From positions 1 to 35,204 of IMG/VR virus record IMGVR_UViG_3300010234_000034: a stretch of DNA of 35,204 nt. The stretch is one strand, 5' to 3'. Of the stretch, positions 2,622-24,282 are shown piece by piece. The DNA is from a virus. Lineage: Duplodnaviria; Caudoviricetes. The translations under genes and the position numbers were made by a program. The notes beneath the pieces are model-generated. The model had not been told where the DNA came from. It saw only the letters and a list, made by a program, of their open reading frames with translations, and did not search any database. Position 1 is the first letter of the stretch; each line of letters begins with the position of its first letter.

Positions 2622-2855
2622 TTATTTTACTCTTTGTTCTATAAATTTTAATGATGTTCTGATTTCGACTAGATCTGTTTGGATCTGCAACATCGTTATG
2701 TCGAGTGCCTCATGTGTTGTCTGTAGTCCTTCAATCTTTTCAGAATTATCTATAACTTTTTCACCCAACTGAGTCCATGTGATTATTATCCCAGCTACAA
2801 ATAGAACGATAAACCACCAATCTCTTGCAACTTTTATCATATTCTGTCTAGTCAT
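2622..2855 (-). CDS. Small membrane protein with coiled coil (holin/XhlA-like candidate)
   Basis: One TM helix (WWFIVLFVAGIIITW) then a heptad coiled coil; adjacent to the peptidase. Confidence 0.55.
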   Translation of the reverse strand: MTRQNMIKVARDWWFIVLFVAGIIITWTQLGEKVIDNSEKIEGLQTTHEALDITMLQIQTDLVEIRTSLKFIEQRVK

Positions 2856-3279
2856 ACTTTATTGGTTTTACCGCCTCGCCCCGTTCTTTGGCTTTTGTGC
2901 GTATTTCTAAATAAACCCCCCTTTCTAATACATCAACATCTAAATCATAATCAGTAAGTATCTCTGAATATGCGTTGACTATATCGTTCCAGTTTGTCTG
3001 GTCTATAACCACGTTTGGTTGCTCTCCATCAAGGATGGCTTTCTTAACGTGCCCTTTTACATCTGTGCCAGAGTAGGCTTCTGCTTTCTTAATCTTCCTA
3101 TCACCCAGGACTTTCTCCTCTACTATAAGTTCTGCACCTAGCTCATCTTCAATGATGGGTGCATTAGCTGGATCTATTGTGAAGGTTGGCGGTGTCCTAT
3201 CTATTCCAAAGAATACAATAACTCCAATGAATAGTATTCCCGTTAGTCCAAATAGTTTTAGTTTAGTCTCGTTTGTCAT
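2848..3279 (-). CDS. Hypothetical protein with N-terminal membrane anchor
   Basis: 143-aa ORF; hydrophobic helix at about residues 9-25; TAATATG junction. Confidence 0.7.
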   Translation of the reverse strand: MTNETKLKLFGLTGILFIGVIVFFGIDRTPPTFTIDPANAPIIEDELGAELIVEEKVLGDRKIKKAEAYSGTDVKGHVKKAILDGEQPNVVIDQTNWNDIVNAYSEILTDYDLDVDVLERGVYLEIRTKAKERGEAVKPIKYD

Positions 3280-3280
3280 A

Positions 3281-4150
3281 TTAAAATATTGGTATTAGTA
3301 ATGGTGCTCCTCCGTCTCCACCGCCTCCAGCTGCGGCAACCGCCGTGAATGTTCCATCTGCTGTGAATGTATGAAGTGTGTCCCCTCCATCTGTCGTTAT
3401 TGTTCCTCCTGTTGAGTCTGTGGAAACTCCATCTGATCCGTCTGTTGCATATCTAATGATAACGATACCAGAACCTCCCCCACCGCTACCGTTAGCACCT
3501 CCACCTCCTCCAGTGTTGGCTGTTCCGTTTGCTTCTCCAGCTCCACCTCCACAAGTTGCTGTTCCATTACCAGGAGAGGCGGATGTTCCTCCACCTCCTC
3601 CACCGTAACAAACAGATGATCCACTTATTGAACTTGATGTTCCAGCACCTCCGTTTCCTGCTTGTGTACTAGATGAAGCGTTGCCTCCGTTGGCACTATC
3701 ACCAGCTCCACCTCCAGAAGCTAGACCATCTCTCGTTCCACCAGTATTACCTGAGCCAGAATCTCCACCAACTCCCGTTGTGTGTCCTCCCAACCCCGCT
3801 GAAGCTGTTATTGATGAGAAAACACTGTCTTCTCCTGGGTCTCCGTCAACAGAACCAACTCCAGTAGATGCGCCTCCATCACCAACTGTAACTGTGTAGG
3901 CCTGAGCTGTTATATCAAGAGATGCGTTGTATGCAACTTCACCTCCTCCACCTCCAGCGGGAAAGGTTACACCTCCAACACCACCACCAGCTCCACCTCC
4001 TCCAGCAACTACAAGAACCTCAACATGAAACCCTGAAGAACCCAAAACTATTTCGTCTGGGGTCTCTTCAATTGCTGGTTTGTATGACAATACTCCAGCT
4101 AGAAACACCAGAAGCACCATTATTACGATTTTGTTGAAGTGTTTAATCAT
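3281..4150 (-). CDS. Gly-rich domain protein with N-terminal membrane anchor (receptor-binding/fibre-like)
   Basis: VEVLVVAGGGGAG...GGSGIVIIRY...HTFTADGTF Gly-rich signature; start at ATG 4150 (TAATG overlap with upstream stop). Confidence 0.75.
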   Translation of the reverse strand: MIKHFNKIVIMVLLVFLAGVLSYKPAIEETPDEIVLGSSGFHVEVLVVAGGGGAGGGVGGVTFPAGGGGGEVAYNASLDITAQAYTVTVGDGGASTGVGSVDGDPGEDSVFSSITASAGLGGHTTGVGGDSGSGNTGGTRDGLASGGGAGDSANGGNASSSTQAGNGGAGTSSSISGSSVCYGGGGGGTSASPGNGTATCGGGAGEANGTANTGGGGGANGSGGGGSGIVIIRYATDGSDGVSTDSTGGTITTDGGDTLHTFTADGTFTAVAAAGGGGDGGAPLLIPIF

Positions 4151-7100
4151 TATTCTCCTGCACTGAAGCGACAATGCACTGTTGCTGTGCTTGTTGCTGT
4201 GCTAAATACTAATATATCTGTTACTCCTGCTGTTGTTGAAAGAGTTATTGCTGGACCCGCACATTCACTTGGCATAGCTAGAGTTCGTGAGCCTGTTCCG
4301 TCCTGAGTTACGTAGTAAGTTACTGATTGTCCGACTGCGATGTTTGAGAATGCTAGAGTCCTGTTTCCAGCAAGTGTTGTGTAGAACTTGTTATTTGTAG
4401 ACCAATCTAGGGTTACTGTCGCTCCATCTGTTGCTTCGTCTGGTGTTAATACTACTCGTCCATTGTCTATTCTGAAGTCTCCGTATAGGTCTAGGTCGTA
4501 TGCTGGGGTGGTTGTTGCTATACCCACCTTACTTGCTAGGTATGTACCAGTTACGTCTCCGAGGTCTCCAAATCTTGCCGCCTCAAAGGTTGCTCCTGAG
4601 CTGTATGAAGATGCCCCGTATATTGATACATAAGCACCCGAACTAAGAGCTGTTGTTACTATTGCCCCCTTCGTCTTTGTTCCATTGAGGTCTGTTGAGC
4701 TCCATGTAAGAGGAGCTAGTTGCTGTCCCGAACCATAAAGGCTTTCAATGTTGATTCCTGCGTCAGATACAGCGTCTACACCGAGAGCTGAAGTTCCAGC
4801 CACTGTTAGTTTTGCAAGGGGTGAGGTTGTTCCTATACCCACCTTTCCTCCACCTGCAAAATAAGAATTATCTGTATTGTGGTTAAATGTCAAAAACTCA
4901 GTGTTCTGTGTTCCTGAATCGTTGTATGAACGAATCTTTGTGGTTCCACCATTTATTTGGAATCCGATAGTTCTTTCATTGGAAACACCTCCGCTATCAT
5001 AAAGGAATAAGCCAGCAGACTGTGAACCTTCAGTATATAGTCGCCCATCTGCTAATCCTGCACCTACAGCAATACCATCTTCTGTACCTCCATCAAACAC
5101 CCAAGAAAGACCCACGTCCCCCGATAGGTTAAGTAATGATTCTGGTGACGTGTCACCTATACCGACGTTTCCAGTATCACCTTCAATGGTGAAGAAGTTG
5201 GTAACATCTGTTGCGTTGTTTTGTGCTGTATCTACTTGGTGAGTTGTGGCATTAGAGTTTCGGTTAATCATAAAGTCGTCTGTGGAGTATCCTCGTCCCC
5301 AGAACCATTCATATCCTCCTGGCACATTGTGATAATAAGAACCACCTCCTCGTGCTGTTGAGTTTCGTGCCTCCAGTAGAACTGAAGCGTCTGTCCAACC
5401 GCTAGAGTTTCCTGAAATCTTTAGGTCAGTTGTAGTATCAGACCATAGTTCCATTTCTGCTCCTGAGCTTACTGTAGTTGTTCCTACTCCAAAAGCTGAA
5501 CCGTTGATGTAAGAAGTTCCTGCGCTGTAAAGCATCACATCTCTGTTACTGTCTGTGTCCCATAATTCAAGATAGCCATTTCCTGAACCATCTGTTTGAA
5601 TAGTGAGCGCCTGAACATTTGCTGAGTCTTTGAGTTTTAGTAGTGTTTGTGAGGTTTCAGCCGTTCCTTTTACCTCCATTCTATAGGTTGCTGCTGTGTC
5701 TCCAACTACCATATTTCCGCTAGAGTCTATTGTTACTTTGTTGCTACCATTTGTTGTAAACCTTAAATCAGAACCAAAACCTTCAATCTGAACTGGAGTT
5801 GAGTCATCAAGCTCTAGAACAGCAGAGCTTGAGCCGTTTAGGTCTCCCATTCGGAAGTTATTATTTCCGTCTGCTATTGCAAACTTTGAGGCTGGACTAG
5901 TCGTCCCTATACCGACGTTCCCTGTAGATAATATAGTCATCTTCTCTGCATTTCCCGCAAACAAACCTAACCTACCAGAAACCGTAGCGTCTCCTATCTC
6001 AGTTAAGTTGCCGTCGTAATTATGTGTGAACTTTGCACCGATAGTATCTGATGGTGAAGCAAAATATATGTTTCCAGTTACGCTGTCTGGTGTAAGTATA
6101 CTTAGACCTCCTGCAGAAGCTGCTTCTATAATAAGCTCATCTGCTTGTGGGTGAGCCGCACCGCCAGAAGCGCCAGAGTATACAACCAAATTACCGTTTG
6201 GAGTTGTAGAACCTATACCGACGTTTCCTGAGGAGTCGATTGTGAGAGATTCAACCCCTGATGACCCTACATAGAATGACATAGCATCTCCTGTTGAACC
6301 AATCATTACATTTGCATCTCCTGTTGTTACACTGTCCCTGAACACAATTTGCTTACCACTTGAGGCGGTTGTTTCAAGTTTAAGTGTGCGTTGTGTTGCA
6401 CCTGAATTTGCATGTAGTGTTAAGTCTGGTGATGTGTCACCTATACCGACGTTTTGTGAAGAATCTATATATAGGGCAGAGGTTGAATTTGTTATAAGAG
6501 AAAGAGTGTTTGTTCCTGTTCCTCCAATCCCAGTAGACCCATCTGCATGACTTGGTAGCAATGTTGGGTTTGTTGAACTAACTGATTCGTCTATGAGACC
6601 TGGTCCTGTTGCGTCGTCTGCTCTAAACATTCCACTCGCATTAACAAACAAGAAGTCTCTAGCTCCTCCTGTTGTTATAGATAGGTTGTTGTCTGATGAC
6701 TCATAGAGACCAGTGTTTCCATCTCCAAAGGCTAGTCCTGGTGTTGCAGCACTTCCAGCAACACTTGTATCAACAAGCGTTCTGGTTGAAAGGGTTACAA
6801 GGTCTGAAGCAATAGTTACGGGTACTACCGTTGTTGAATCGTCCTTAATTTGGAAAAGAATGTCTTTATATTCTGCGTTTGTGTTTAACTGAAATACAAA
6901 GTTCCCTGTATTCAATTGCTGTAGTTTTAGTCCGTTACTTGCACTATTCCAATAAGTATCGTTACTGATTATCGCCCCCCAAGGGTTAGCGTCATCTGCT
7001 CGTATTGAGAGTAGAGGTGAACCAGCCCCATCGTCTGTTAGAGATAGCTCTTGACCAGTGATTGAACCAGCTACATCAAGGTCGTTTGTTACCTGCAGTG

Positions 7101-7668
7101 TTACTGGCGCAAATAGGTTTCCATCTACTTGAGCGTTTCCTGTTACATGTAAATTAGTTGCTGTAGTAGTTCCAACGGGAAGTGTTAGAGGTGAGGCTAG
7201 AGAAAGAGTGTCTCCAGTTAGAGTGATCTCGTTAGCCGTTCCTGCAAGGTTTGTATCGTCCCCTATGTCTACTTGTCCTACGTTAATGTTGTCTCCTGAG
7301 AGCGTTACATAATCCAAAGAACCTGATGTTCCTAGATTAGTATCGTCTGATATATCTACTGTATTAGCTGTGATCTGCTGTCCTGAAAGTGTTAGGTAGT
7401 CTTGTCCTGCAAGGGTTACTGCGTCGTGTGCCACCCCGAATCCAAGTGTTGAGGTTGCTACTACGTCATATTTACCATTAGCATTACCAACAAGAACCTG
7501 CCCATAGGTAGGTTTAGTTGACGTTCCTGTTCCACCCTGAAATGGAAGTGTTATAGACAGCCCCAGTACTGGATCTTCTATCTGAGAAGTTTGATTTGAT
7601 ATTAAAATTCCACCGAGAGCTAAAACTCCGATGATTCCTATTGCTGCATATTGTATAAATCCTTTCAT
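4150..7668 (-). CDS. Long tail-fibre/adhesin-like protein with GNVGIG repeats and N-terminal membrane anchor
   Basis: 1172 aa, Thr/Ser/Gly-rich; repeated (G/Q)NVGIGxTSP units; C-terminal TLAGNRTL...TQDGTGSRTL domain typical of fibre tips. Confidence 0.75.
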   Translation of the reverse strand: MKGFIQYAAIGIIGVLALGGILISNQTSQIEDPVLGLSITLPFQGGTGTSTKPTYGQVLVGNANGKYDVVATSTLGFGVAHDAVTLAGQDYLTLSGQQITANTVDISDDTNLGTSGSLDYVTLSGDNINVGQVDIGDDTNLAGTANEITLTGDTLSLASPLTLPVGTTTATNLHVTGNAQVDGNLFAPVTLQVTNDLDVAGSITGQELSLTDDGAGSPLLSIRADDANPWGAIISNDTYWNSASNGLKLQQLNTGNFVFQLNTNAEYKDILFQIKDDSTTVVPVTIASDLVTLSTRTLVDTSVAGSAATPGLAFGDGNTGLYESSDNNLSITTGGARDFLFVNASGMFRADDATGPGLIDESVSSTNPTLLPSHADGSTGIGGTGTNTLSLITNSTSALYIDSSQNVGIGDTSPDLTLHANSGATQRTLKLETTASSGKQIVFRDSVTTGDANVMIGSTGDAMSFYVGSSGVESLTIDSSGNVGIGSTTPNGNLVVYSGASGGAAHPQADELIIEAASAGGLSILTPDSVTGNIYFASPSDTIGAKFTHNYDGNLTEIGDATVSGRLGLFAGNAEKMTILSTGNVGIGTTSPASKFAIADGNNNFRMGDLNGSSSAVLELDDSTPVQIEGFGSDLRFTTNGSNKVTIDSSGNMVVGDTAATYRMEVKGTAETSQTLLKLKDSANVQALTIQTDGSGNGYLELWDTDSNRDVMLYSAGTSYINGSAFGVGTTTVSSGAEMELWSDTTTDLKISGNSSGWTDASVLLEARNSTARGGGSYYHNVPGGYEWFWGRGYSTDDFMINRNSNATTHQVDTAQNNATDVTNFFTIEGDTGNVGIGDTSPESLLNLSGDVGLSWVFDGGTEDGIAVGAGLADGRLYTEGSQSAGLFLYDSGGVSNERTIGFQINGGTTKIRSYNDSGTQNTEFLTFNHNTDNSYFAGGGKVGIGTTSPLAKLTVAGTSALGVDAVSDAGINIESLYGSGQQLAPLTWSSTDLNGTKTKGAIVTTALSSGAYVSIYGASSYSSGATFEAARFGDLGDVTGTYLASKVGIATTTPAYDLDLYGDFRIDNGRVVLTPDEATDGATVTLDWSTNNKFYTTLAGNRTLAFSNIAVGQSVTYYVTQDGTGSRTLAMPSECAGPAITLSTTAGVTDILVFSTATSTATVHCRFSAGE

Positions 7669-7669
7669 A

Positions 7670-8461: not shown

Positions 8462-8467
8462 ATATAT

Positions 8468-8476
8468 ATTATAACA
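8468..8476 (-). promoter_or_regulatory. Extended -10 promoter for a leaderless transcript
   Basis: TGTTATAAT followed by 6 nt and ATG 8461. Confidence 0.7.
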
Positions 8477-10165
8477 TTAAGCGTCTGCGTCCCTTACTTC
8501 TATTAAACTAAATCTTGCATTAACTATAGTATCAGCCTTGTCTGTGGTTACCTCTAACCAGAAACAAGACATTTCTCCTATAGGAAATGGTAATGGTGGA
8601 GACAGGTCTACATGGTTTTCTACCGCTGTATCTAAACTAATTCTAGCTACCTCGTACTTGGAATTAGATACTGCTGAATATACCCACGCTTTCAGAGTTA
8701 CTACTGGATTTGCTCCCGATTGTTTAAGAGAGGTAAGTGTAAGCCATTCTGCTATCGCTTGGTGGTTTACCTGTGTAAAGAATATGCACTGCTGTGATGT
8801 TCCTTCTCCTATTGGTATTTGTCCCTGAATAGTTGCATCTGTTGTTGCTGTAGCTGTGATAGTTCCTTCGTTTACCTTGCTAGTTCCTGAAACATATATA
8901 GCCATTCTGTTTACACCTAACCAAGTTTCAGTTGTTACTACTGGTGTAGTTCCGTTTAGTGTTACCACTACTGTTTGAGCCTCTCTGTTGGCATCTACTC
9001 CATAAATAATAATAGAGTTTGCTCCCGTGTCTGGTACTACTCCGTTATCGTCTACGTCAGTTGATACTACGGATAAAGTCCTAGCTGTAGTCATAGGTAC
9101 GAATGTTCCGCCCCAAGAAGCGACAACTTCTGTCCCTATGTCTATGTCGTTGTTATATCCAAACTTATTCCATAGTGTTGCTCCCTGTCTTCTACCAAGT
9201 GCTACTTCGTAATTATAGGAAGTAGGTCGTGTTACTGTTGCATCAAAATCTTGAGAAAGAGTAGAGTCAGACGGAGCATTTAGCTGTCCATAGTCTCCAA
9301 GTAAGGTTTGTAGTCTTAAATAGGTTTGATTGCTTGCACTTGTATTTGTGAACACCACTCTTGCATATTTTCTTGTTATCTTGAAAGCGTGGGGTGGTTC
9401 AATCTGTGTTGTTCTGTAGTATCTAGTTAGAGTTGAGTCTTGATTGACTCCATCTGGTGAGAATTGAACACTAAATGTTCCGTTTTGGTCTGTCTTTACT
9501 GCAACTGTTAGAGAAGCATACTTTGATACATCTTCCCATACACCAGTAAAGGCTATTCCTGCGTTTAGGAGTGTTGTTGTTGAGTTATCAGATGATACTG
9601 TACCTGCTAGAGATGGGTCTATAGTATCTCCTGCTGTATTAACTACCTGTGTTTTCTGTGAGCCATCTGTTTGAGCATCTGATGTAGCAGGATTGATAAC
9701 AACTCCAGCCACATTCCTTGTCCATATCTTGCTTGGGCCTACAGCACCACCCTTGTATGAGTCGGGTTTATCTTTTATTCCCTGACTTACAATAAGAAGT
9801 TCGTTTAATCTTTTCTCTAGTCCTGAGAAGTCTACTGGCATTGGCTTATTCCCCTGAATAGACCTTAATATCTCTAGCATTTCAGAGTTATCTGGTCGCA
9901 TGTTTGATACTAGATCCGCTAGTAGTGTTTCAAGTCTATCTGTGTTCGGTATATCGTCTTTTTTACTCTCAATAAGTGTTTTTATGGCGTTTTCAAGCCC
10001 AGAGAAGTCAATTTGAGGTATATTTACCTCGATTTCAGGCATTTCCACCTTAATATCTGGTGAACTAAGCAATTCTAGGTCAAACTTCTCGGGTATTTGA
10101 ATACCAGCAATAGCTTTTTCTATCTCTACCTTGATTATTTCTTTTATTTCTTTGATTAAATCCAT
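8477..10165 (-). CDS. Putative virion structural protein (helical N-terminus, beta-rich C-terminus)
   Basis: 562-aa ORF in the tail module; Thr/Val-rich beta-like C-terminal two thirds. Confidence 0.6.
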   Translation of the reverse strand: MDLIKEIKEIIKVEIEKAIAGIQIPEKFDLELLSSPDIKVEMPEIEVNIPQIDFSGLENAIKTLIESKKDDIPNTDRLETLLADLVSNMRPDNSEMLEILRSIQGNKPMPVDFSGLEKRLNELLIVSQGIKDKPDSYKGGAVGPSKIWTRNVAGVVINPATSDAQTDGSQKTQVVNTAGDTIDPSLAGTVSSDNSTTTLLNAGIAFTGVWEDVSKYASLTVAVKTDQNGTFSVQFSPDGVNQDSTLTRYYRTTQIEPPHAFKITRKYARVVFTNTSASNQTYLRLQTLLGDYGQLNAPSDSTLSQDFDATVTRPTSYNYEVALGRRQGATLWNKFGYNNDIDIGTEVVASWGGTFVPMTTARTLSVVSTDVDDNGVVPDTGANSIIIYGVDANREAQTVVVTLNGTTPVVTTETWLGVNRMAIYVSGTSKVNEGTITATATTDATIQGQIPIGEGTSQQCIFFTQVNHQAIAEWLTLTSLKQSGANPVVTLKAWVYSAVSNSKYEVARISLDTAVENHVDLSPPLPFPIGEMSCFWLEVTTDKADTIVNARFSLIEVRDADA

Positions 10166-12393
10166 TATTTGTTTGCTTTATTCCAGATGTCTGTTAGTTG
10201 GGATTTGGTTTTGATTATATCGCTAGATAGAATACGGATTTCTGATTCTGATGGAATACCAAAACTACTTATATCAACAGCTTTCTTGTTTTTAATTCTT
10301 GCAATTTCACCAAGTTCTGTAACCAACCTTTCAAACGGTTTTATGTTTTCATTTTCCAAACCTACTTTTACCATGTCTATATTTTCATCTATGATTGATT
10401 TAATATATTTTTTTGTACTTGCATCCAGTTCGTTGTATCTCAGTATGTCTTTATTATCTACAAATCCTTCAATGATTTTTCCCTTGTTACCATAAACTTC
10501 TGCAATTTTTTGGTCGGTTGTAAATGATTTTCCAATACCTGCACTTTTTTCTGCTGATATAGTGGGTTCTCCTCTAAAAACAGGTGTCCCCTGCGCCTCC
10601 ACAAACTCCTCTGCACTCTTATACTTCTTAGCTTCTGATACCAAGTCGTCTCCTATATTTAGTTGTTCAGGGATTACGCCCTTGTTAAAAGACGGTTGTG
10701 CTGCCTCTTTCAGTATCGTCTCCTCATCTAAGAACTTTCTTTGTAGATAATCTCCGAGGATATTCATAGCACCCTTAGGATCACCAGACAAAGCTCTCAA
10801 GGCATCAAATCCAGCACTTGTTATTTCTTGTCTAAACAAGTTCTTGGTATTTTTATTGCCCAGCAAGTCTGTAACTACAGTCATCAGCGTTGCATCATTC
10901 ATTAGGTCAATTCCAGTAAGTTCTTTTACTGTTGCGATTATCTTTCGTGCATCTCCACCTCTTCCTGACAGGACAAGCCTTAGTAGGTATTCACCCCCAG
11001 CTTTTCGCCCTGTGTAAGACTCTAGTGTTGCTAGTGCGTCCATAAACTCTGAGTATTTCGCTAGATCTCCAGCTCCTGTTTTGCCCACCAGTGTGGAAGC
11101 CTCATCTGCCAACGATGACCTGAAACTTCGTGAGAATGGATCTACTGAGTTTGATGCCTCTCTAGCACCCTTTGCGAAGTTTATCTTTCCGTCTACCAAT
11201 GACCGCAAGTCAATCATATTTCTTAGTGTCGGGGATTGTTTGAATTTCAAAAACTCTGCATATAAATCATTTAATACTTTTATGTCTCCAGCCGCCCCAG
11301 TTTTCGCAATAGTACCTGGTTTTTGAACAACTTGCCCATTTCTTATTGTGAGATTCAGTTTTTCAAGACCTTCCTTAAACGTGTTGTCTACAGCCTGAAC
11401 AGACGTTGACGGGGCTTTAACTGTCGCTAGTTTCTGTCGTGTCTGTCCAATAGCTGAACCTGTTTCATTATTTATTCTATACAATTCATCTACAGCAGAT
11501 TGAACCCTTTGTCCACCGAACTCATAAGGAGTAGGTACTGTGTCATCTAGGTTTCGTGCATTTACCACATCAATATATTGCTGTAGGTTCTCTGGCCCCG
11601 CCTCTTTTATTCGCTTCTTAATATCTGGTGTAAGCCCGATAAACTTCTCTCTTATACTTGGCTGTACAGCACCCTGTTCTGCAAGTTCCCTTATTGCTGA
11701 TGGTGAGTCTTTAAGTGCTTGGTCTGCCAAGTCTATAGCATCGTCCACCGATTTAGCTGGTCTCGTAAAGAGACTCTGTACCTTTTTAACCCCAGATTCA
11801 GCACCCTCTTTCGCTGTTTGTAGTCCAGTCTTAAAGGCTGGTGCAACAACTTTCTTTGCCCTACCAAGTCCAGTGATTTCAAGGAGACCCTCCCCAAATC
11901 CTGCAATGTTTCGTGCTTGTCTCTGTATACCCTCTGGCAGTGAATTAAAGAAATTAACAACATCCTTTACATTCTCTGATTGAGCAACCTTCCCCGCTAT
12001 TCCCTCAACTCCCGTTTTTATCTTTTCTTCTGTTTCTTGACCTAGGGCTACTTTACCTGCACCAACAACAACCTCCCCGAATGCTCTTGATCCACCTCTG
12101 AAGAATGAAGCTCCAATTTCTGTTGCCCTTTCCAGCGGGTCTACTAGCCGATCAAGAGCTGTCTGTGGTTCGGGTCTTGTAAGAGTTTCGCGTATCCTTT
12201 CCCCTTCCTCCCTGAAAGTACTTCCAACACCCTCAAAAGTCTCTTTTATATCTCCAAGAGTTTCTCTTATTCTTCCTGGCTTATTGTTGGCAAATTCATT
12301 TCTGTATTGAGAAATCGCCCTCATTCTTTCGAGGTCGCTCTTACCTTGTGATATTCCAAAAGCGTCTATTTCTCTTTCTTTATTACTGAGCAT
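10165..12393 (-). CDS. Internal virion/ejection protein with C-terminal ADP-ribosyltransferase-like domain
   Basis: Helical protein at the ejection-gene position; C-terminal VFRG...SFTT...ESEI (R-S-E) motifs; start taken at ATG 12393, overlapping the end of the upstream gene. Confidence 0.62.
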   Translation of the reverse strand: MLSNKEREIDAFGISQGKSDLERMRAISQYRNEFANNKPGRIRETLGDIKETFEGVGSTFREEGERIRETLTRPEPQTALDRLVDPLERATEIGASFFRGGSRAFGEVVVGAGKVALGQETEEKIKTGVEGIAGKVAQSENVKDVVNFFNSLPEGIQRQARNIAGFGEGLLEITGLGRAKKVVAPAFKTGLQTAKEGAESGVKKVQSLFTRPAKSVDDAIDLADQALKDSPSAIRELAEQGAVQPSIREKFIGLTPDIKKRIKEAGPENLQQYIDVVNARNLDDTVPTPYEFGGQRVQSAVDELYRINNETGSAIGQTRQKLATVKAPSTSVQAVDNTFKEGLEKLNLTIRNGQVVQKPGTIAKTGAAGDIKVLNDLYAEFLKFKQSPTLRNMIDLRSLVDGKINFAKGAREASNSVDPFSRSFRSSLADEASTLVGKTGAGDLAKYSEFMDALATLESYTGRKAGGEYLLRLVLSGRGGDARKIIATVKELTGIDLMNDATLMTVVTDLLGNKNTKNLFRQEITSAGFDALRALSGDPKGAMNILGDYLQRKFLDEETILKEAAQPSFNKGVIPEQLNIGDDLVSEAKKYKSAEEFVEAQGTPVFRGEPTISAEKSAGIGKSFTTDQKIAEVYGNKGKIIEGFVDNKDILRYNELDASTKKYIKSIIDENIDMVKVGLENENIKPFERLVTELGEIARIKNKKAVDISSFGIPSESEIRILSSDIIKTKSQLTDIWNKANK

Positions 12394-13831
12394 AATATTT
12401 TGAAGGATTAAATCCATTAGTTGTTTGTCCACCAATACCCATCTCTAACATATCTTCGGCACTAAGACCCATTGCAGAACCCACATCTATTGGATCTATA
12501 ACACCTAGATTTAATGCCTTTGCAAATGTTGGCTCTAATAAGTCTGCTATTTTTTGAAGCTCTGCTGTGTACTCGCTTTCGGGTAAATCAAGAGATAGTT
12601 TTGATGTTGAGTCTTCGATAAGTCCAAGTTCCCTGTCGGACATCGCTCCCAATCCCTTCAATGCACTCAAGTTTTCTCTTGTAAGACCTTTCTTTAACTG
12701 TTCGTGGGTTTTATTGAAGTCTCTTGTGGCAAATCCTGGGAGAGTTGGGAGTATTGAAGTAAATCCTGTTGCTAACTTTAGCTTTTTATGAGTTCTAAGG
12801 TCTGTTATAAGACCCTGAACAGACAGCGCACTCTGTGCCTCTAGTTTTGTAGCCTCCGCCTCCTCGATTCCCTTAACCGTAGACTCTTGTGCCAGTAGTG
12901 CGGCTTTCAGTCGTAGCTCCTCTTTTCGTGTATCAATCTGGTTTCGTAGGTTTTCTACCTGTAAATCTTTCATTAACTGATCGGCTTGTCTGTTTGTTCT
13001 GGCTATTTCAGACATGTGTGGGGCTGCTATTCTCATGGCTTCATCAATGCTTTGTGCCAAATTTATCTTTTCAGCCACCCCCGTTGGTAATCCCATCTCT
13101 ATCGCCTTGAGAGCGAAGTTTCGTCTAGCTGTTTCATCATTTATAGAACTCTCTATTGCCCTCTCCCTATCCTGCAAAGCTAGTTCTGTCTTCAACGCTC
13201 GTTTCTTATCAGCTAGTGTGAATGCTGGTGAGTCTTTTATTACTTGTAGATTAGCTTGTGCAACAGCTAGTTGTTCCTTTATTGGGTCAAATCTCTGTGC
13301 TACAGCCCTGTCTGCAAGGTTTTGAGCTAGTTCTATGTTACCTCTTACCGCTTCAAGCTGTGAGGCTACACCAAGAGACTTTATGGCGTTTTCTCTTAGT
13401 CGTCCTGTTTGTATTGGTGCCACTCCACCCGCCGTTCTACCCCTACCAATAGATTCTTGTTGTATCTGTAGCGGAATTGCTTGTGATTCTTTAATTAGTC
13501 CACTTAACTGTGATGTAAGTGCATTTTGTTGTTTTAGTGATTCTGGCAACCCAAGACCCTCCTCTGTGGCAGTTCTTACAGCAGATTGTCCTAGTAGTTG
13601 CTCGTTTAGGGTTTGTATTTGTTTTGAAAAGCCTTGTGCCTCAACCTCTGGCTGAGTTGCTTGTATTTCAGGTATCTCCAACGAATCAACTGGGAATACT
13701 GGTGATTCTTGAGACCTATTAAAATTAACAGACGGTGCTTCTTTCAGCATTTCACCTGTAATAACATCAACCTGACCTCCAGTTGGTGTTCCATCTTGTT
13801 GTATTATGTTCCCTTCTTTATCTACTGCCAT
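12383..13831 (-). CDS. Internal virion/ejection (DNA delivery) protein
   Basis: Gln/Ala/Leu-rich coiled coil; GLGAMSDRELGLI motif; position after the nozzle gene. Confidence 0.62.
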   Translation of the reverse strand: MAVDKEGNIIQQDGTPTGGQVDVITGEMLKEAPSVNFNRSQESPVFPVDSLEIPEIQATQPEVEAQGFSKQIQTLNEQLLGQSAVRTATEEGLGLPESLKQQNALTSQLSGLIKESQAIPLQIQQESIGRGRTAGGVAPIQTGRLRENAIKSLGVASQLEAVRGNIELAQNLADRAVAQRFDPIKEQLAVAQANLQVIKDSPAFTLADKKRALKTELALQDRERAIESSINDETARRNFALKAIEMGLPTGVAEKINLAQSIDEAMRIAAPHMSEIARTNRQADQLMKDLQVENLRNQIDTRKEELRLKAALLAQESTVKGIEEAEATKLEAQSALSVQGLITDLRTHKKLKLATGFTSILPTLPGFATRDFNKTHEQLKKGLTRENLSALKGLGAMSDRELGLIEDSTSKLSLDLPESEYTAELQKIADLLEPTFAKALNLGVIDPIDVGSAMGLSAEDMLEMGIGGQTTNGFNPSKYYAQ

Positions 13832-13832
13832 A

Positions 13833-14144
13833 TTATGATGCGATTAGTCCAAGCTCTTCGAGTCTTGTAATTATTAAATTTATCTTTGCCCTTGCTGTTC
13901 CATCTTCTGCTGAACCTGTCTGTGCTACAGGAGAAAGCCCTACAGGTTGATCTACTGGTGTTACCCCATAAAATCCTAGCTTCTGGTCTGATGCCGTTCC
14001 AATCTTTGTTCCATTCTTTCGCCCAGCGGAAATATTCCTACCGTCCTCCATTTGAAGTGTCTTGTATACAGTAAAGCGGTCAGACTTCTCTAACTTGTCC
14101 AGTCGTCCCTGTAATTCTTGTATCTGTAATTCTAATGGATTCAT
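13833..14144 (-). CDS. Small virion protein
   Basis: QKLGFYGVTPVDQP...LEELGLIA motif like those of head-fibre-type proteins; ATGA/TAATATG coupling. Confidence 0.55.
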   Translation of the reverse strand: MNPLELQIQELQGRLDKLEKSDRFTVYKTLQMEDGRNISAGRKNGTKIGTASDQKLGFYGVTPVDQPVGLSPVAQTGSAEDGTARAKINLIITRLEELGLIAS

Positions 14145-15652
14145 ACTTCTGTGTCGATTAGTGAATACTTATATGTAAATGCGGTTATAACAGCGCCTCC
14201 AGTTGATTCCAGTTTGAACTCATATTCTGAACCTGCTACAAAATTTGGATCTGTACCTGGAGCTGTCTTTTCAAAATACAATGAGTCATCTATTGAAGCT
14301 GTGCCTATCTCCACCCACGCTCCGCCATCTACCCTGTAATACATTACAACAGTGTCTCCTGATGCTAACTTCTCATAGCTAACCCTTGCTGATAGGAGTT
14401 GTTTTTCGCCATCTCTGTGATCTGCGGGCATTTGTGGGTTGATTGTTGTCTCGTATACCCCAGTTGTATAGGCTTCACTCTCATTTGTCTTAGAGAGTGC
14501 CCATGTTGAGTTGTCTATGTAAGACTGAAATACGAAGTCATTTAATATATAAAACCCACTAGGAATACCTGTTGTTAGTGCCGTTGTGTTATTCGGTGTG
14601 TATTCCTGTGTTACGGCAAAGCCTGAGTCAGTTGGATTTATGCTCCATATACCATCTCTAAGCGTCCCATCTACCGTTCCGTACATTTGGAAATATATTC
14701 GTCCATTAGCTTTTCTTCTCATGTTAGGAAGATTGATAGAACTAACGGGGAATCTTTGGAATTCTTTTGGTCCACTTGATGTTAAATATCTAAATGAAAC
14801 GTAGTCGTCTAGTGCTGTAACAACCCCCGCTTTTGTTGAAGCTCCGACAAGGAAGCCTCCAAGCTCTTCTATAAAGAGGAGTTTTTCATTACCCCATGAG
14901 TGCTTCTCTGAGAATATAGTTAAAGATGTGTCTCTGTCCCATAGGTAAACATTAGATTTTACTGATTGATTTGAAAGTGAAGTTGTTGCTATCGCTATAA
15001 AGTTTCCATATTCACAAATAGCCTCTATTCGCTCATTGGCAGACACGGCACAAGCGACATTCGTCCATGACCCATTGTCATTCTTAGCAATATTGTTGTC
15101 GTAAGGTATATATAAAATGTCATCGACTGAATGAACCAACCCTTCCCTAACTGTTGTAAATGATATTTGGGTTGTTGAAGCTCTCTCGTCCCAAGCTGTT
15201 CCAGTTGGAGAGAATGCCATTATGTCGTTGGTCTTTGCACAGAATATAAGTCCTACCTTCTCATAGTAAGTAAACAAATCAAACTTAGCCGCACCAGTTG
15301 ATGATTGGTTATTTGACGGTGTAGCCCACCCATCGTCCCCTAAATCGTTAGTTGCGCCTGTTGTTGTGATGATTTTTCTAAGAACCTCCGCCCTACTATT
15401 AGCAGACTGCTTCCCCAGCGAATACAGGTTGTAATCACCGCTCCCATCTTTAGCTATAGCAAAGTTCTGTTTCTGGCTAGTTGCAGCTGAATCATCTCCG
15501 CTTTCACTAGCGAAGCGAGGTCTAATCTTGTAGGGATAGCTAAACAGATCCATGTTTGATGTTCCACGACAAACAGCTTCTCGGGGATCTCGTGGATCTC
15601 CTACCATTCCTCCGTTGAATCTATCTATTTTTGTCTTGAATACTTTTGCCAT
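14141..15652 (-). CDS. Tail nozzle/stabilisation protein (P22 gp10 / T7 gp12-like beta-propeller)
   Basis: N-terminal FNGGM motif; about 500 aa all-beta with repeated Trp/Asp blades; synteny. Confidence 0.62.
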   Translation of the reverse strand: MAKVFKTKIDRFNGGMVGDPRDPREAVCRGTSNMDLFSYPYKIRPRFASESGDDSAATSQKQNFAIAKDGSGDYNLYSLGKQSANSRAEVLRKIITTTGATNDLGDDGWATPSNNQSSTGAAKFDLFTYYEKVGLIFCAKTNDIMAFSPTGTAWDERASTTQISFTTVREGLVHSVDDILYIPYDNNIAKNDNGSWTNVACAVSANERIEAICEYGNFIAIATTSLSNQSVKSNVYLWDRDTSLTIFSEKHSWGNEKLLFIEELGGFLVGASTKAGVVTALDDYVSFRYLTSSGPKEFQRFPVSSINLPNMRRKANGRIYFQMYGTVDGTLRDGIWSINPTDSGFAVTQEYTPNNTTALTTGIPSGFYILNDFVFQSYIDNSTWALSKTNESEAYTTGVYETTINPQMPADHRDGEKQLLSARVSYEKLASGDTVVMYYRVDGGAWVEIGTASIDDSLYFEKTAPGTDPNFVAGSEYEFKLESTGGAVITAFTYKYSLIDTEV

Positions 15653-15655
15653 ATT

Positions 15656-16888
15656 TTATTGATACCATTCTACGATTACTATACCCGCTGTTCCTGAACC
15701 ACCAGCCGTGTCTGAGTTAGAAGCCGTTGCTCCAGCACCGCCTGAACCATACCCCGATGCACTAGCTCCCGCTCCAGCGCTTGATGCTATTGTGTCTATA
15801 CCTCCATTTCCTAGTGGAGAACTACCACCACCACAACCAAATGTTGTGATTGCGTTATAACATCTATGTCCTGTCTCTCCAGTAACACCAACGTCAGCAT
15901 TTGTAGTTCCACCTCCAGCGCCACCACTCGCAACTGCACTTGCAGATGCTTGTGGGCCTCCAGTACCACCACTTGCCGTTACGGTTACGTCCCCAGCAAA
16001 GATTGAATCTCCTCCGTTTGCACCTGCCTCAGATGAAACTCCTGCACCCAAAGCTCCCACCGTTACGGTTACGTTTCCAGATACCGACACTATGGCTTCG
16101 GCATATCCTCCTGCGCCACCGCCACCACCAGCATCATTGGCATCTCCAGAGTCGGTTCCACCTCCTCCCCCGCCTCCTCCGACAAGCCTAACCTTGACCT
16201 TGTCTACTCCAGCAGGTTTTACCCATGTTCCTGAAGTTGTGAATACTGTTGATGTGGCTATTGGTGATGTGAATGTTATATACCCAGTCGGGCTTACGGC
16301 CATTGTTGTTGTTGCTGTAGGTAATGAACTAGGTGTGTTTAGTGATAACCCATTTAATATAAAAGGATTTGCTACCGTTGATGATGCTACTAGGTTTTTA
16401 ACCCCAAATGATGTTCCCGTAAAGTTGTAGTCCGCTGTTTCGTCTACAGATTGTGTAGACCATGCTGGAACACCCCCTGTAACGGTCAAAACTTGGTTAG
16501 ATGAGCCTATTCCTAGCTTACTCAGGGTATTAGACCCAGAAGCATAAAGAATGTCTCCTGTGGTATATGAGGTTTGTGCGGTTCCTCCGTACACCTCGCC
16601 AACAGCCGTTGCATTCCATGTTCCAGTTGTGATAGTTCCAACCCCAGTAAGCAATGACATTGTTGTTGTTGCTTGTAGTGCCTCTAAATCTGTATTTATA
16701 TTAGAAAAGTTTGTGTTTATAACCCCTCGTGAGTTTTTAAGAGTGTCTGAGCCCTGAATTGTTGTAACCGTTGCTCCAAAAGTGTCATCTCCGATTGAAA
16801 TTGAGTCTTGCGGTGCGTAATTATACAAACCAACAAAGCCAATTGCTGTTGCTACGAGTGTTATTGCAATATTTGTTAGTAAATTCAT
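15656..16888 (-). CDS. Gly-rich fibre/spike protein with N-terminal membrane anchor
   Basis: SRGVINTNFSNIN helix, GDILYASGSNTLSKLGIGS repeat, FTTSGTWVKPAGV...GGGGGGG...GIVIVEW Gly-rich domain. Confidence 0.75.
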   Translation of the reverse strand: MNLLTNIAITLVATAIGFVGLYNYAPQDSISIGDDTFGATVTTIQGSDTLKNSRGVINTNFSNINTDLEALQATTTMSLLTGVGTITTGTWNATAVGEVYGGTAQTSYTTGDILYASGSNTLSKLGIGSSNQVLTVTGGVPAWSTQSVDETADYNFTGTSFGVKNLVASSTVANPFILNGLSLNTPSSLPTATTTMAVSPTGYITFTSPIATSTVFTTSGTWVKPAGVDKVKVRLVGGGGGGGGTDSGDANDAGGGGGAGGYAEAIVSVSGNVTVTVGALGAGVSSEAGANGGDSIFAGDVTVTASGGTGGPQASASAVASGGAGGGTTNADVGVTGETGHRCYNAITTFGCGGGSSPLGNGGIDTIASSAGAGASASGYGSGGAGATASNSDTAGGSGTAGIVIVEWYQ

Positions 16889-17076
16889 TAGTTTGCTGGG
16901 TTATTAGTAATAGTTGCGGTGTTTATATCCTTGTTTGTAAGTGAATACGGGTTATCCCATGTTCCAGCTCCTTCTTCCCATGTAAATTCAGCCTCATCCC
17001 ATGTCAAAGACGTAGATCCTAGTTCTACGTTGGTTGGTGTTGCTGTATTTATTGCTTTATTGGTAACTGTTGCCAT
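16888..17076 (-). CDS. Small virion protein
   Basis: 62 aa; internal repeat TNKAINTAT/TNKDINTAT flanking TWDEAEFTWEE. Confidence 0.6.
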   Translation of the reverse strand: MATVTNKAINTATPTNVELGSTSLTWDEAEFTWEEGAGTWDNPYSLTNKDINTATITNNPAN

Positions 17077-17079
17077 GTT

Positions 17080-17832
17080 TTATATATATCTTATCTTTTT
17101 AGGTTTCATAACAGCCTTACTTGGGTAAGTTGTTGCTATAAAGTCTTCAAAATCCTCCTCTAACGGCTGTATTTCTGATTGGATTATGTTTAGTGTCGCA
17201 GAATCTGTCGGTCTTTGTACTGCAACGTATGATTTAGCTGCTCTCAACGCCAATAGCTCGTGGAATTGCTTAGGAATACCTGGCTTTGTTGTGTCATCTG
17301 CTGAAGTTCCTGTAACCGTAAACTCTGACTGTTCTCGTCCAAAGAATAGCTCTATACCAGCCGATACAGCGTAGTTTGGCTCTGGGTATAGGTAAATTCT
17401 ATTACCAGCCTCCAAGAAGTGTGTAGGCGTTCCTGAATTGTCTGAGTTAGGAGACATAACGTCTGGAACACGTGGATCACTCAATAACATGCGTTCTAGC
17501 TCTGTGTAGTCTGTTGCTGTTGCTGAATTTAATATTCTAACGTTTGTTACATTCAAAATAGCCTTTGTGTTGTCATCAGCTGTGATTTTGTAGTCCGCTT
17601 GTCCTGAAACGATATCTACACGTCCAATAGGTGCATCTGTGTGATTGTTATCGTCCCATCTTATTTGGTCTGAAAAAGACAATAACCTCGTTAGTAGCTT
17701 GTCAAAAGATACGTTGAGGTTGTTTATAATAGTTCTAAGAACGTCTCCTGAACTTCCATACGGTAATCGAGACCAGAACTCTACTCTCTGGACTAGACCG
17801 CTTTGATTTGTTGTGTCTGATAGCTGTGCCAT
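17080..17832 (-). CDS. Head-tail adaptor (gatekeeper)-like protein
   Basis: Directly after the capsid gene; IVSGQADY, IYLYPEP and PGIPKQFHELL motifs typical of podoviral adaptors. Confidence 0.65.
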   Translation of the reverse strand: MAQLSDTTNQSGLVQRVEFWSRLPYGSSGDVLRTIINNLNVSFDKLLTRLLSFSDQIRWDDNNHTDAPIGRVDIVSGQADYKITADDNTKAILNVTNVRILNSATATDYTELERMLLSDPRVPDVMSPNSDNSGTPTHFLEAGNRIYLYPEPNYAVSAGIELFFGREQSEFTVTGTSADDTTKPGIPKQFHELLALRAAKSYVAVQRPTDSATLNIIQSEIQPLEEDFEDFIATTYPSKAVMKPKKIRYI

Positions 17833-17861
17833 TATTTAACGATTATCTATTAACTCCCATA

Positions 17862-17886
17862 ATCCCACCCCCAGAAGGGGCAGAAT
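17862..17886 (-). terminator. Stem-loop downstream of the major capsid gene
   Basis: ATTCTGCCCC-TTCTG-GGGGTGGGAT with G-U pairs on the minus strand; weak U tract. Confidence 0.45.
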
Positions 17887-17893
17887 ATAAGAA

Positions 17894-18769
17894 CTACGCT
17901 ACGTTCACGTCAAATACTAGGCCAACTTGGCTTGTAGGTGTTAGGTGTCCGATATCTACTCGAGAGTAGTATGCGTTACCTGAGAAGAACGTATTTGAAT
18001 CCGCTGCTGGGAATTCAATAACGTGTGCTCGTCCATAAGTACCTCGTAGGATACCTAGTCTTTCTACTTTCTTAACTCCAGCGAACACGTGGTTTGCTGT
18101 GTGGTCATTTGACCAGTAGTGATCAACTCCAAGGTAGTGTAGACCTTCTACTGTTCCTTCCTTTAGAGCTTGGTCTGCTGTTGCGAAACCGTTAGCTTGT
18201 ACGAATGCTTCCAATAGTTCAAAATCGGCTGCTCTCCATACGAATCCAACTCCGTTTCTGTTCATCATAGTTTGTCCGTTTGCTTCTCGTATTTCTCTCT
18301 TAACACCACGGATGATGTCGTCGATGTTTGAAGCTGAAACTGTGATTGCGTCTGTTGCAGCACCTCCGCCTCCTATTGAAGCTGTTCCGAAGTCTGTCCA
18401 AGATGCGTGTCGTGCAAGAACTGCTGATTCGATGTACTCGTTTAGAAGTGCTCCGATTCGGTCAAACAATTCAGCTGGCTTTGTCCAAGGTGATTGTGCA
18501 AGGTCTCCCAAGTCAACCAATAGTCCAAGGTCTCGTCCTGTTGAAATTGTTAGTGTTTCTGCAGTTTCTGCAAATGTTTGTAATGCTAGTCCTGTTCCTC
18601 GTGTAACAGTTGTTACAGAAGGTGTTGTTGACATGTATGAACTTGAGATAACTCTTGTATCTGTGTAAGTTACATCACACATCTCTTTCCATGTTTGTGG
18701 GTGATCCAGTCTATCCTGAAGCACATCCTCAAACATTGTCTCGTAAGTAATTGTGTTAGCTACTGACAT
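17894..18769 (-). CDS. Major capsid protein (HK97 fold, P22-coat-like)
   Basis: 291 aa after the scaffold gene; size, composition and EGLHYLGVDHYWSN pattern fit. Confidence 0.78.
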   Translation of the reverse strand: MSVANTITYETMFEDVLQDRLDHPQTWKEMCDVTYTDTRVISSSYMSTTPSVTTVTRGTGLALQTFAETAETLTISTGRDLGLLVDLGDLAQSPWTKPAELFDRIGALLNEYIESAVLARHASWTDFGTASIGGGGAATDAITVSASNIDDIIRGVKREIREANGQTMMNRNGVGFVWRAADFELLEAFVQANGFATADQALKEGTVEGLHYLGVDHYWSNDHTANHVFAGVKKVERLGILRGTYGRAHVIEFPAADSNTFFSGNAYYSRVDIGHLTPTSQVGLVFDVNVA

Positions 18770-18809
18770 AATAAGTTTGAATAATGCTGATAATCCAAAC
18801 TAATTTAAT

Positions 18810-19415
18810 CTATTTGTCATTGTAAAACTTTTTCCCTTCCTTTGAGTTGGTCATGAATGCTCTCGCAATCTTAACTCTAGTCTTTCTGTCAGGTACTTGT
18901 TCTGCTGTTGGTGGCACACCCTTCGCAACCCAATATTCAGGTGTATTTTTGGCTCCTGATTGACCTCCTCCTCCGCCTTTTATGTCAGAGGTTGCTTCTA
19001 CGTTAGCTCGTGAGGTTCTAAGATCCTCAAGTTTAGTTTGGAAGTAGTCGTCATCAACGAGCTGATCCCAATCCATACCTGTTTTCTTCTGAATATCCTT
19101 TGCAAGTTCTACTTCATCTTCAGCTGTAACACCTGCTGACCGAAGATAAGTTTTTTCCAATAGTCCAAATTCGTTTGGTGCTTTTTTGTCATTTTCTACA
19201 GTTTTGTCTGCTTTTTTTGCTTCGTCATACAGTTCTTTGTATGTTTTGCCAGTGTCTGGGTCTACCGCTTTGTTCTTCCAGTTCTGACGTTGTGCATCTA
19301 GTGTCTTAACTTTAGACTCTAGTTCGTCATTTTGTGAAGTTTTGTCTTCTACAGTGTTTTGAGTGTCCTGTACCACTTCGTCATTTGTTTCCATAAGTTT
19401 TGTCTTATTAGTCAT
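18810..19415 (-). CDS. Capsid scaffolding protein
   Basis: Acidic helical protein immediately upstream of the capsid gene. Confidence 0.68.
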   Translation of the reverse strand: MTNKTKLMETNDEVVQDTQNTVEDKTSQNDELESKVKTLDAQRQNWKNKAVDPDTGKTYKELYDEAKKADKTVENDKKAPNEFGLLEKTYLRSAGVTAEDEVELAKDIQKKTGMDWDQLVDDDYFQTKLEDLRTSRANVEATSDIKGGGGGQSGAKNTPEYWVAKGVPPTAEQVPDRKTRVKIARAFMTNSKEGKKFYNDK

Positions 19416-19440
19416 TTGATGGGTTTTGTCCCTTAATAAA

Positions 19441-19977
19441 TTAGTCTGCTACTTGGAATGGTGCTACGAGTAGCATTACATCTGAGTCTGATTTCTTAAC
19501 AAACTTCAATGTTGCTCCTTCTAGTCCATTTACGATAACTGATCCTCCTTCTAATTCCTGCAAATCAACTCCAGTTCCAGCTGCGAATGTCACAGTTGAT
19601 GCTGCTGTTGAAGATGCGTTGTAGAAAGTAACTTCAAATGTCTGCCCTGTTTTCAGTCCAACAAGTGGTGCTGATGTTGAAGCCATTGTTGTAAGAGTTG
19701 TATTTACGTTTGGTGTCCATGAAATGTAACCAACCTTGTCTCTTAGTTCTGCTGTTGTAAGTGTGTATGTTGCTGCTGTTGAAGATGTTGCTACAACTTC
19801 TCCACCGTTCACAAAGTTTGAAAGGAAAAATTGTCTTTCTGTGTGGTCTGGCCCTGCGGCTACACCAAACTCTCTAACAACCTCCTTCGTAACCTCTACG
19901 CCTCCTGCATTGAAGTAAGCTACCAATGCAAATACTAAAGCTACTGCTGCGATTATTACGCCTAGATTCTTCTTCAT
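19441..19977 (-). CDS. Head decoration-like protein with N-terminal membrane anchor
   Basis: TM helix at about residues 5-22; YTLTTAEL...VTFAAGTGVDL beta domain; head module. Confidence 0.55.
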   Translation of the reverse strand: MKKNLGVIIAAVALVFALVAYFNAGGVEVTKEVVREFGVAAGPDHTERQFFLSNFVNGGEVVATSSTAATYTLTTAELRDKVGYISWTPNVNTTLTTMASTSAPLVGLKTGQTFEVTFYNASSTAASTVTFAAGTGVDLQELEGGSVIVNGLEGATLKFVKKSDSDVMLLVAPFQVAD

Positions 19978-23421: not shown

Positions 23422-23440
23422 GGACATATTATAACACAAA

Positions 23441-24149: not shown

Positions 24150-24282
24150 AATCCTATATTACGCTTCTTAGGCTTTTGCTTTCTAATAACGTGCTTACAA
24201 CTATCCCACCCCTCGACACAGCAACGTGGAATAATCACATTTGTTCCTACTGGTTGTTTTGGTTGTTCTTTGTCCTTTTCCA

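Follow-up and report, generated by a model that had tools for sequence, protein, structure and literature searches.

Hydrophobic-glycine membrane leaders on accessory virion-type proteins of a short-tailed phage: candidates for export and proteolytic release

Tailed phages are held to complete their particles in the cytoplasm. In filamentous phages, the virion proteins pVIII and pIII carry export signals, are processed at the membrane, and are added to the particle there. Here, we analyze IMG/VR record IMGVR_UViG_3300010234_000034, a single contig of 35,204 bases that was taken whole (the window), with genes on the minus strand and, judged by its gene content, a short-tailed phage layout. Five of its encoded proteins, namely a head-knob (decoration-like) protein, a spike or short fiber, the long tail fiber, a Gly-rich adhesin-like protein, and an orphan open reading frame (ORF), begin with a hydrophobic helix, an acidic linker, and then Leu-Gly or Phe-Gly ([LF]G). 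This leader is real, clade-wide, and precisely positioned. The reading that we favor, with a probability of roughly 0.6, is that such precursors are exported and tethered, are freed by a noncanonical cut, and dock on particles at cell lysis.

The phage would resemble the filamentous pattern in having virion proteins that bear export signals and are processed at the membrane. Filamentous coat proteins, however, stay anchored by a membrane segment up to extrusion and are cut at ordinary signal peptidase sites, whereas the genes here include those for terminase, adaptor, and ejection proteins and a lysis cassette, and the predicted site can lie up to about 70 residues past a signal. Filamentous-type assembly would go with an extrusion ATPase and with neither terminase nor tail; the window has matches to a terminase, an SU10-type adaptor, and an ejection protein. 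Double-glycine leaders, which are removed after Gly by papain-clan C39 domains of peptidase-containing ABC transporters (PCATs), differ in having no membrane helix, Gly-Gly or Gly-Ala at −2/−1, and a dedicated ABC transporter. The phage leaders have a helix and a hydrophobic residue at −2 (P2), and none of the 30 window ORFs scanned against families matches a transporter. Cwp84 of Clostridioides difficile is an exported papain-fold enzyme that matures the surface precursor SlpA and prefers Lys at P2 (accessible text of PMC4089489). By analogy, the phage system would work like filamentous coat export joined to Cwp84-type maturation, and it is a member of neither class. The literature searched, a scope that excludes supplements, possibly with signal-peptide annotations, and most subscription papers, gave no description of tailed-phage appendages that are exported and then freed by a protease. 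HFTV1 does not serve as a precedent, as the accessible parts of PMC12494034 and 10.64898/2026.09.13.751334 give no signal peptide on its virion proteins.

Leader anatomy and its restriction to accessory proteins

Helices were detected by hydropathy scanning (best 17-residue Kyte-Doolittle mean) in 31 window ORF calls. Five ORFs longer than 100 aa have an N-terminal helix and all five carry [LF]G; each has a single helix (mean 2.1 to 2.8) followed by a net acidic linker of 12 to 22 residues (charge −1 to −4), which bears out the arrangement described in an earlier note on this DNA. That note also placed the Gly at nearly the same position in the five proteins; this position is not fixed, as the Gly lies at residues 18 to 75 across homologues. 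The short holin-like ORF at 2622-2855 also has LG31 directly after its helix. [LF]G occurs at most 30 residues after the helix in 22/150 host single-pass proteins, a rate at which five of five would arise by chance with a probability of about 7e-5, and the motif is thus not equally frequent in such proteins.

The head-knob protein has 157 homologues, and motif positions were counted in the best 120, with the column five residues ahead of a conserved Pro as the anchor. The residue preceding the predicted cut (P1) is Gly in 114, Ala in 2, and Ser in 2; P2 is Leu, Val, Phe, or Ile in 112; and the residue after the cut (P1′) is Ala, Gly, or Ser in 117. P3 is free (Val, Gly, Pro, Glu, Ala, Thr, Ser, and Arg each in 8 to 12), and the distance from helix to Gly ranges from 4 to 46 residues (median 14). 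Among 142 further, distant representatives, the helix is present in 134, of which 121 show Gly at the same column, Ala and Ser being the usual exceptions. Helix and [LVFI]G are retained in head-knob and spike homologues alike, and the [LF]G of the earlier note is present but too narrow, the true motif being [LVFI]-G/[AGS] (the slash marks the predicted cut), with Ala or Ser sometimes in place of Gly.

Across the phage module as a whole, [LVFI]G[AGS] lies at most 60 residues after the helix in 86 of 106 distinct helix-bearing proteins compared with 36.6 ± 4.6 after shuffling (maximum 50 in 500 shuffles), a comparison in which the sequences are far from independent because they come mostly from four families. 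In the host comparison set (1,011 ORFs from nine genomes of Patescibacteria or related bins), the motif follows an N-terminal helix in 22/150, against 26.5 when shuffled.

The leader is confined to accessory proteins. Counted over 60 loci plus the window and not dereplicated, an N-terminal helix is found in none of the core families (capsid, 0/59; scaffold, 0/55; adaptor, 0/54; portal, 0/47; nozzle, 0/21; ejection, 0/25) and in nearly every member of seven accessory families (31/31, 29/29, 21/23, 10/11, 6/6, 3/3, and 3/3). The core ORFs of the window (portal, capsid, adaptor, nozzle, and ejection) have no helix either, in agreement with the earlier note. Their capsid, portal, and nozzle labels come from gene order and weak matches in homologues (phrog_267, E = 0.07 to 0.08; phrog_156, E = 0.005 to 0.02); the direct family matches in the window are to terminase, the SU10-type adaptor, one ejection protein, and the tail fiber. 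Calling all five leader-bearing ORFs structural-module proteins is less secure for the orphan ORF, for which homologue searches found none and which has a second candidate site at VLG59.

In another accessory family (family 10), sites lie 5 to 19 residues from the helix, xxA/ is mixed with xxG/, and the residue at −3 is mostly small. The slot that this leader-bearing family fills in relatives is occupied in the window by a leaderless, weakly related protein (Table 1) with an insertion of about 125 residues relative to its homologues of 87 to 90 aa. We note that an A-T-S/T-S/T-T motif (ATSST, ATTT) recurs in exported proteins of most accessory families of the clade, for example in the head-knob protein, and could be a glycosylation or structural motif.

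Register of the predicted cut, export signals, and appendage fold

Spike proteins occur in three forms that share one starting point. The 14 distinct spike anchors comprise nine with helix, linker, and [LFV]G, one with a classical signal (VWA/), and four that start at Met, and all then continue into an ATITT-type segment (for example FG/ATITT, VWA/STITT, and Met/ATITT). Eight of the nine [LFV]G spikes (the ninth is two residues off) coincide exactly at the Gly position with the VWA form and with the Met forms, and the leaderless Met forms have an in-frame stop 1 to 12 codons upstream. A protein search with the spike gave 14 matches that bear a leader, all reading [LFVI]G/[AST]T; another 10 have none and start within one residue of that point, and 7 further matches aligned over downstream repeats only. 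Five fiber heads aligned on QGGTG have LG/, LG/, FG/, YG/, or VA/ 7 to 9 residues upstream, and a leaderless homologue of the Gly-rich protein (L255:7951-8991, 41% identity) starts within about two residues of the site. Because Met or a classical signal site replaces the leader in exact register, the likely cut is placed directly after the Gly, a position that these comparisons support well. Removal of Met, cleavage by signal peptidase, or a cut after Gly would all yield the same N-terminus. A capsid tree labeled by spike leader type is unresolved (no starred branch, and changes no fewer than shuffled), so no order of leader gain and loss is claimed.

Two neighbors of the appendage genes deserve mention. 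A 62-aa Trp-rich protein (WDEAxxTW repeat; 16888-17076, minus strand) is always encoded just upstream of the spike gene; it starts Ala-Thr-Val-Thr, like the predicted mature spike, and may be a leaderless docking partner. A conserved helical 263-aa protein of no family (7670-8461, minus strand) directly precedes the fiber gene in many relatives and is a candidate fiber carrier or chaperone.

Under the positive-inside rule, a basic N-region and an acidic linker place the N terminus inside and the C terminus outside, and this is the topology predicted for the leaders because of their basic N-regions and acidic linkers; Lys or Arg is present in four of the five N-regions, and the spike has neither before its helix. 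Many tail proteins of relatives have ordinary AxA signals. The leader region likely lies outside the membrane. One head-knob orthologue (P0262; L023:8412-9122, plus strand) has a signal peptide, a PG_binding_1 domain at residues 32 to 87 (E = 3e-11), and then KLG/A. As the peptidoglycan-binding domain precedes the site, its pro-region would be located in the wall, suggesting that retention before release matters; P0262 would also need a second cut about 70 residues past the signal, beyond the usual reach of signal peptidase I. The pro-regions of other head-knob orthologues contain collagen-like repeats (P0218) or an amphipathic segment.

The leaders share with signal peptidase I substrates a basic n-region, a hydrophobic h-region, and a small residue at −1, and orthologues have AxA-type sites at the same position. 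They differ in that −3 is unconstrained, a hydrophobic residue occupies −2, and the site is 4 to 46 residues from the helix or separated from it by a folded domain; the head-knob family lacks both the small residue at −3 and the short spacing of a few residues between h-region and site. The earlier note set the motif apart from signal peptidase I AxA sites, and this stands for the head-knob proteins but is less clean where orthologues use AxA-type sites at the same position; its proposal of export and of a cut after [LF]G gains strong comparative support on both counts. A prepilin G/F site is excluded, as the note had argued, because the Gly follows the helix in all five ORFs. A lipobox is likewise excluded, with Ala, Gly, Ser, Val, or Thr and no Cys at P1′ in the 120 head-knob homologues.

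Elsewhere in the window, an exported-type ORF (34176-34920, minus strand) has a hydrophobic start and a VEA/E site with no [LF]G, and is taken as a nonvirion exported control. Its frame opens after a stop near 34920 without an ATG, possibly through a frameshift or an assembly error. The sole family match is phrog_9810, and we take the product to resemble a 3D-domain plus CHAP-like wall enzyme.

The head-knob model (predicted local distance difference test [pLDDT], 90.8) matches the capsid spike knob of Pseudomonas phage Pa223 (9ny6_C) over residues 58 to 177 (Z = 11.0; root mean square deviation, 2.5; 97 aligned), T4 gp9/gp10-type domains (Z = 8 to 8.8), and viral models (316 matches at E ≤ 0.001), and the modeled mature domain is a virion-appendage fold. 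The Pa223 spike gp52 (PDB 9NY6) shares the C-terminal knob and attaches by its extreme N terminus, being held to the capsid solely by residues 2 to 41 according to the accessible part of its report (10.1101/2025.06.11.659172). Such anchoring would explain a need for a free N terminus. Unlike the window protein, gp52 is modeled from residue 2, is leaderless, and has a long triple β-helix stalk (about 160 residues); the window head-knob has about 20 residues between site and knob. For the spike anchor, the ESM Atlas gives a lead, and a lead only, to phage fiber N termini and T4_gp9_10_N (0.87), and searches by sequence found no solved relatives of the spike anchor, portal, nozzle, or capsid.

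Candidate maturation enzymes and competing explanations

In the favored reading, the spike, fiber, adhesin-like, and head-knob precursors likely cross the host membrane, likely remain attached to it through the helix or a wall-binding pro-region, and are likely cut after the Gly of [LVFI]-G/[AGS]. The released proteins would dock through their new N termini onto leaderless core particles at cell lysis. We infer the export, the cut, its timing, and the incorporation from the features described above; sequence comparison lends good support to export and to a cut after the Gly, and docking at lysis is the likeliest purpose.

The leading candidate for the enzyme is the papain-family cysteine peptidase encoded in the window (Table 1). 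Papain prefers a hydrophobic P2. The peptidase model (pLDDT, 92) has a papain fold with xylellain (3ois; Z = 21.2) and procathepsins as top matches and Cwp84 (4CI7) at Z = 18.2, and the catalytic Gln48, Cys58, His194, and Asp211 are invariant in 24/24 sequences. The pro-segment carries FG17/S (Gly codon, 2570-2572), the same signature as the leaders; across the 24 peptidases, P2 is Phe or Leu in 21, Gly is present in all 24, and P1′ is Ser, Ala, or Gly in 21. Papain-family propeptides place a substrate-mimicking residue in S2 (accessible text of PMC4089489). The gene is present in 15 of 17 related records, and the two without it are partial; 9 of those 15 built the profile. A separate Amidase_2 gene lies beside it in three relatives (G003, G007, and G011), which we count for a maturation role. 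Xylellain and Cwp84 (family C1A) share the fold, and Cwp84 matures an exported precursor at one site; unlike the phage enzyme, which is signal-less and has only a candidate substrate, Cwp84 is itself an exported enzyme with a preference for Lys at P2, and its target is a cell protein. As the phage peptidase has no export signal, it would reach the precursors only when the membrane is breached.

Several observations weigh against the phage enzyme. The peptidase gene belongs to the lysis cassette and its product carries a fused CHAP-like domain (E = 0.03), the match of the pro-segment was noticed after the fact, and xylellain-type peptidases are already known in tailed phages (accessible text of PMC10380794). 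A relative (E = 6e-16) is encoded by an integrated long-tailed prophage (G210:C3) whose structural genes all lack a leader. A complex prediction of peptidase residues 28 to 238 with the head-knob site peptide (25 to 56), which scored 0.05 against a mark of 0.32, counts neither for nor against the enzyme. Given an export route, we regard this peptidase as a tentative candidate at somewhat under even odds, a host envelope protease as nearly as probable, and a relaxed host signal peptidase I as the least likely of the three. The VLG box of host surface proteins, described below, bears on the host-protease option. A widespread host papain was rejected, with Peptidase_C1 in 4/101 genomes and the phage peptidase profile in 3/301. 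The prophage itself (G210:C3, about 92000 to 123300; L175-L177) has an integrase, an HK97 capsid, a portal, and a tail tube and is flanked by cell-wall and ribosomal protein genes; the G210 genome belongs to the Patescibacteria phylum, as does G013.

An extended form of the favored reading is a lysis-timed, two-compartment assembly in which fibers, spikes, and head knobs are stockpiled on the outer side of the host envelope. The papain-like protease of the phage, confined to the cytoplasm until lysis sets it free, would cut them at [LVFI]G/[AGS] while finished core particles arrive; it may also cut host surface proteins with a VLG box (see below), opening the envelope. We consider this extension speculative and unlikely in full. 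Other points count against the favored reading itself. Protein, cut, and particle are predictions from sequence; the 106 motif-scored sequences are mostly four families and hence not independent events; the host is assigned from bins only, one of them anammox and none with host flanks; and the orphan ORF is without a homologue, so its virion membership is only putative. Signal peptidase I alone could handle the family 10 sites. Capsid binding by the head-knob is proposed from its fold and gene position only, and no leaderless head-knob homologue was found among the 142 distant representatives, of which the eight or nine without a helix look truncated or mis-started; none is convincing among the best 150 of 943 matches.

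The absence of a leaderless head-knob form, together with the orphan ORF, fits a different role, in which the exported and cut products are not particle parts but act on or around the cell as receptor decoys, in a superinfection block, as epibiont adhesins, or as release helpers. Export signals normally mark nonvirion proteins, and lectin-like and Gly-rich domains are among those exported here. Leaderless spike orthologues, however, occupy the same gene slot and start at the same anchor segment, the sole long fiber of the window is leader-bearing, the head-knob matches a capsid spike knob, a search of 401 Patescibacteria genomes did not find its family, and the 30 window ORFs scanned gave no integrase match; a nonvirion role is therefore improbable, if a serious contender. 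It is less plausible still that nothing is cut, the helix being a lasting membrane anchor and [LVFI]G a hinge at the start of a folded domain, so that particles are tethered or the proteins stay on the surface. Cleavage is indeed only deduced, and the host VLG box stands before sortase signals and YkuD domains with no assigned function; against a hinge, Met, VWA/, or AVA/ replaces the leader at the same residue, Gly is exchanged mainly for Ala or Ser, linker length is free, and the motif is common to unrelated folds.

Two further explanations are rated lower still. A reverse topology, in which the domains remain cytoplasmic, bound to the inner membrane face as a platform for assembly, and the phage peptidase cleaves them on that side, would keep precursor, enzyme, and capsid in one compartment without lysis. 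The basic N-regions (four of five) and acidic linkers predict the opposite orientation, and classical signal peptides in orthologues and the peptidoglycan-binding pro-domain also argue against it, leaving it with little probability. An internal start codon near the motif could yield a leaderless virion form, since TTG, GTG, and ATT, which can encode the P2 residues Leu, Val, and Ile, could act as starts. P2 is Phe at 22/73 sites, however, and the codons are TTG in 2/24 Leu, GTG in 1/15 Val, and ATT in 0/3 Ile; because every synonymous codon is used and start-like codons are not enriched, the signal is read at the protein level, and we rejected an internal start as most improbable.

Genome context, probable host, and the VLG box

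The features of the window are collected in Table 1. The capsid protein has 54 relatives in IMG/VR and 6 in GTDB genomes, and none among 50,697 GenBank phages. Four of the six GTDB genomes are titled as Patescibacteria groups and one is an anammox bin; host flanks were seen at none of the six. As the GTDB capsid matches are mostly in Patescibacteria bins and a relative of the peptidase lies in the Patescibacteria prophage described above, the host is likely, though without certainty, an ultra-small Patescibacterium, an assignment made from bins alone. No integrase was seen in the family scans, and an integrated prophage of this clade was not found in the 401 genomes. We also note that phage contigs in a Parcubacteria bin (G013:C18 and C28; L020/L065) have protein-level identity to IMG/VR record G003, that a SET-domain protein between terminase and portal (23441-23914, minus strand) is kept in 35 loci, and that a related phage (G421, L182:58-5856, plus strand) has a glycosyltransferase-/epimerase-like gene block before its tail genes (labels by inspection).

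Table 1. Coordinates of leader-bearing proteins, leaders, and neighboring features in the window
Feature	Coordinates	Strand	Basis
Head-knob (decoration-like) protein, 178 aa; helix 5-21, FG38/V, mature part 39-178	19441..19977	-	ORF scan, homologues, fold
Head-knob leader, residues 1-38	19864..19977	-	Gly codon 19864-19866
Spike/short fiber, 410 aa; FG38/ATVTT anchor segment, C-terminal Gly_rich_2 domain	15656..16888	-	Family matches, homologues
Spike leader, residues 1-38; Met or classical signal peptide instead in orthologues	16775..16888	-	Spike alignment
Long tail fiber, 1172 aa; LG36/L	4150..7668	-	phrog_18345, phrog_9942 tail fiber; 5 related fiber heads
Long fiber leader, residues 1-36	7561..7668	-	ORF scan
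Gly-rich adhesin-like protein, 289 aa; LG37/S then Gly_rich_2	3281..4150	-	Family match; leaderless homologue
Gly-rich protein leader, residues 1-37	4040..4150	-	ORF scan
Orphan ORF, 143 aa; helix and two candidate sites, LG48/A and VLG59/D	2848..3279	-	ORF scan
Leaderless papain-family cysteine peptidase fused to CHAP-like domain; candidate maturation protease	1397..2620	-	Sequence, fold
Holin-like 77-aa single-helix protein upstream of peptidase	2622..2855	-	Label from position and size; zero family matches
Holin-like 62-aa membrane protein (label inferred)	34923..35111	-	Homologues follow peptidase gene in relatives
Leaderless core genes around spike: ejection proteins, nozzle-like, adaptor, capsid, scaffold	10165..19415	-	ORF scan, family matches, gene order
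Leaderless protein in slot that leader-bearing family 10 fills in relatives	20117..20761	-	hhalign probability 71.5, E 3.6e-5; slot counts
Portal-like and terminase genes, leaderless	21151..25783	-	ORF scan, family matches, gene order

Surface proteins of Patescibacteria also contain a Val-Leu-Gly (VLG) box that has a small residue after it, stands directly in front of a folded domain or sorting signal, and partly resembles the phage motif. It differs in being restricted to a minority of host exported proteins. In the phage families, Val is not a conserved residue at −3 (VLG occurs in 3 of the 5 window leaders, but Val at −3 in only 12/120 head-knob homologues). VLG was found in a leader or preanchor setting in 5/30 pattern loci of Patescibacteria proteins, in 5/50 preanchor segments compared with 1.06 when shuffled, before the catalytic domain in 3/30 YkuD proteins, and in none of 26 sortase linkers read (30 loci). 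With [LVFI]G not enriched after host helices and VLG loci few, a general host motif was rejected. No description of the VLG box was found in the literature searched, with supplements outside that scope. At three loci (L111, L112, and L113), the encoded host surface protein has VLG-A-T/S-T a short way ahead of an LPxTG-like motif and membrane anchor, and three others (L195, L198, and L204; L139:13826-14497) represent a short L,D-transpeptidase (YkuD) subfamily of Patescibacteria with a helix, a linker, and VLG directly before the catalytic domain.

If the favored reading is correct, a widespread clade of phages would finish its particles outside the membrane, with a dedicated release signal unlike the standard signal peptidase site. 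The natural exchange of Met, AxA, and [LVFI]G pinpoints the exact residue expected as the mature N terminus. Positional evidence of this kind would be the first to suggest that Patescibacteria surface proteins may be cleaved at their VLG box, and the peptidase present in nearly all of these phages would gain a candidate function.

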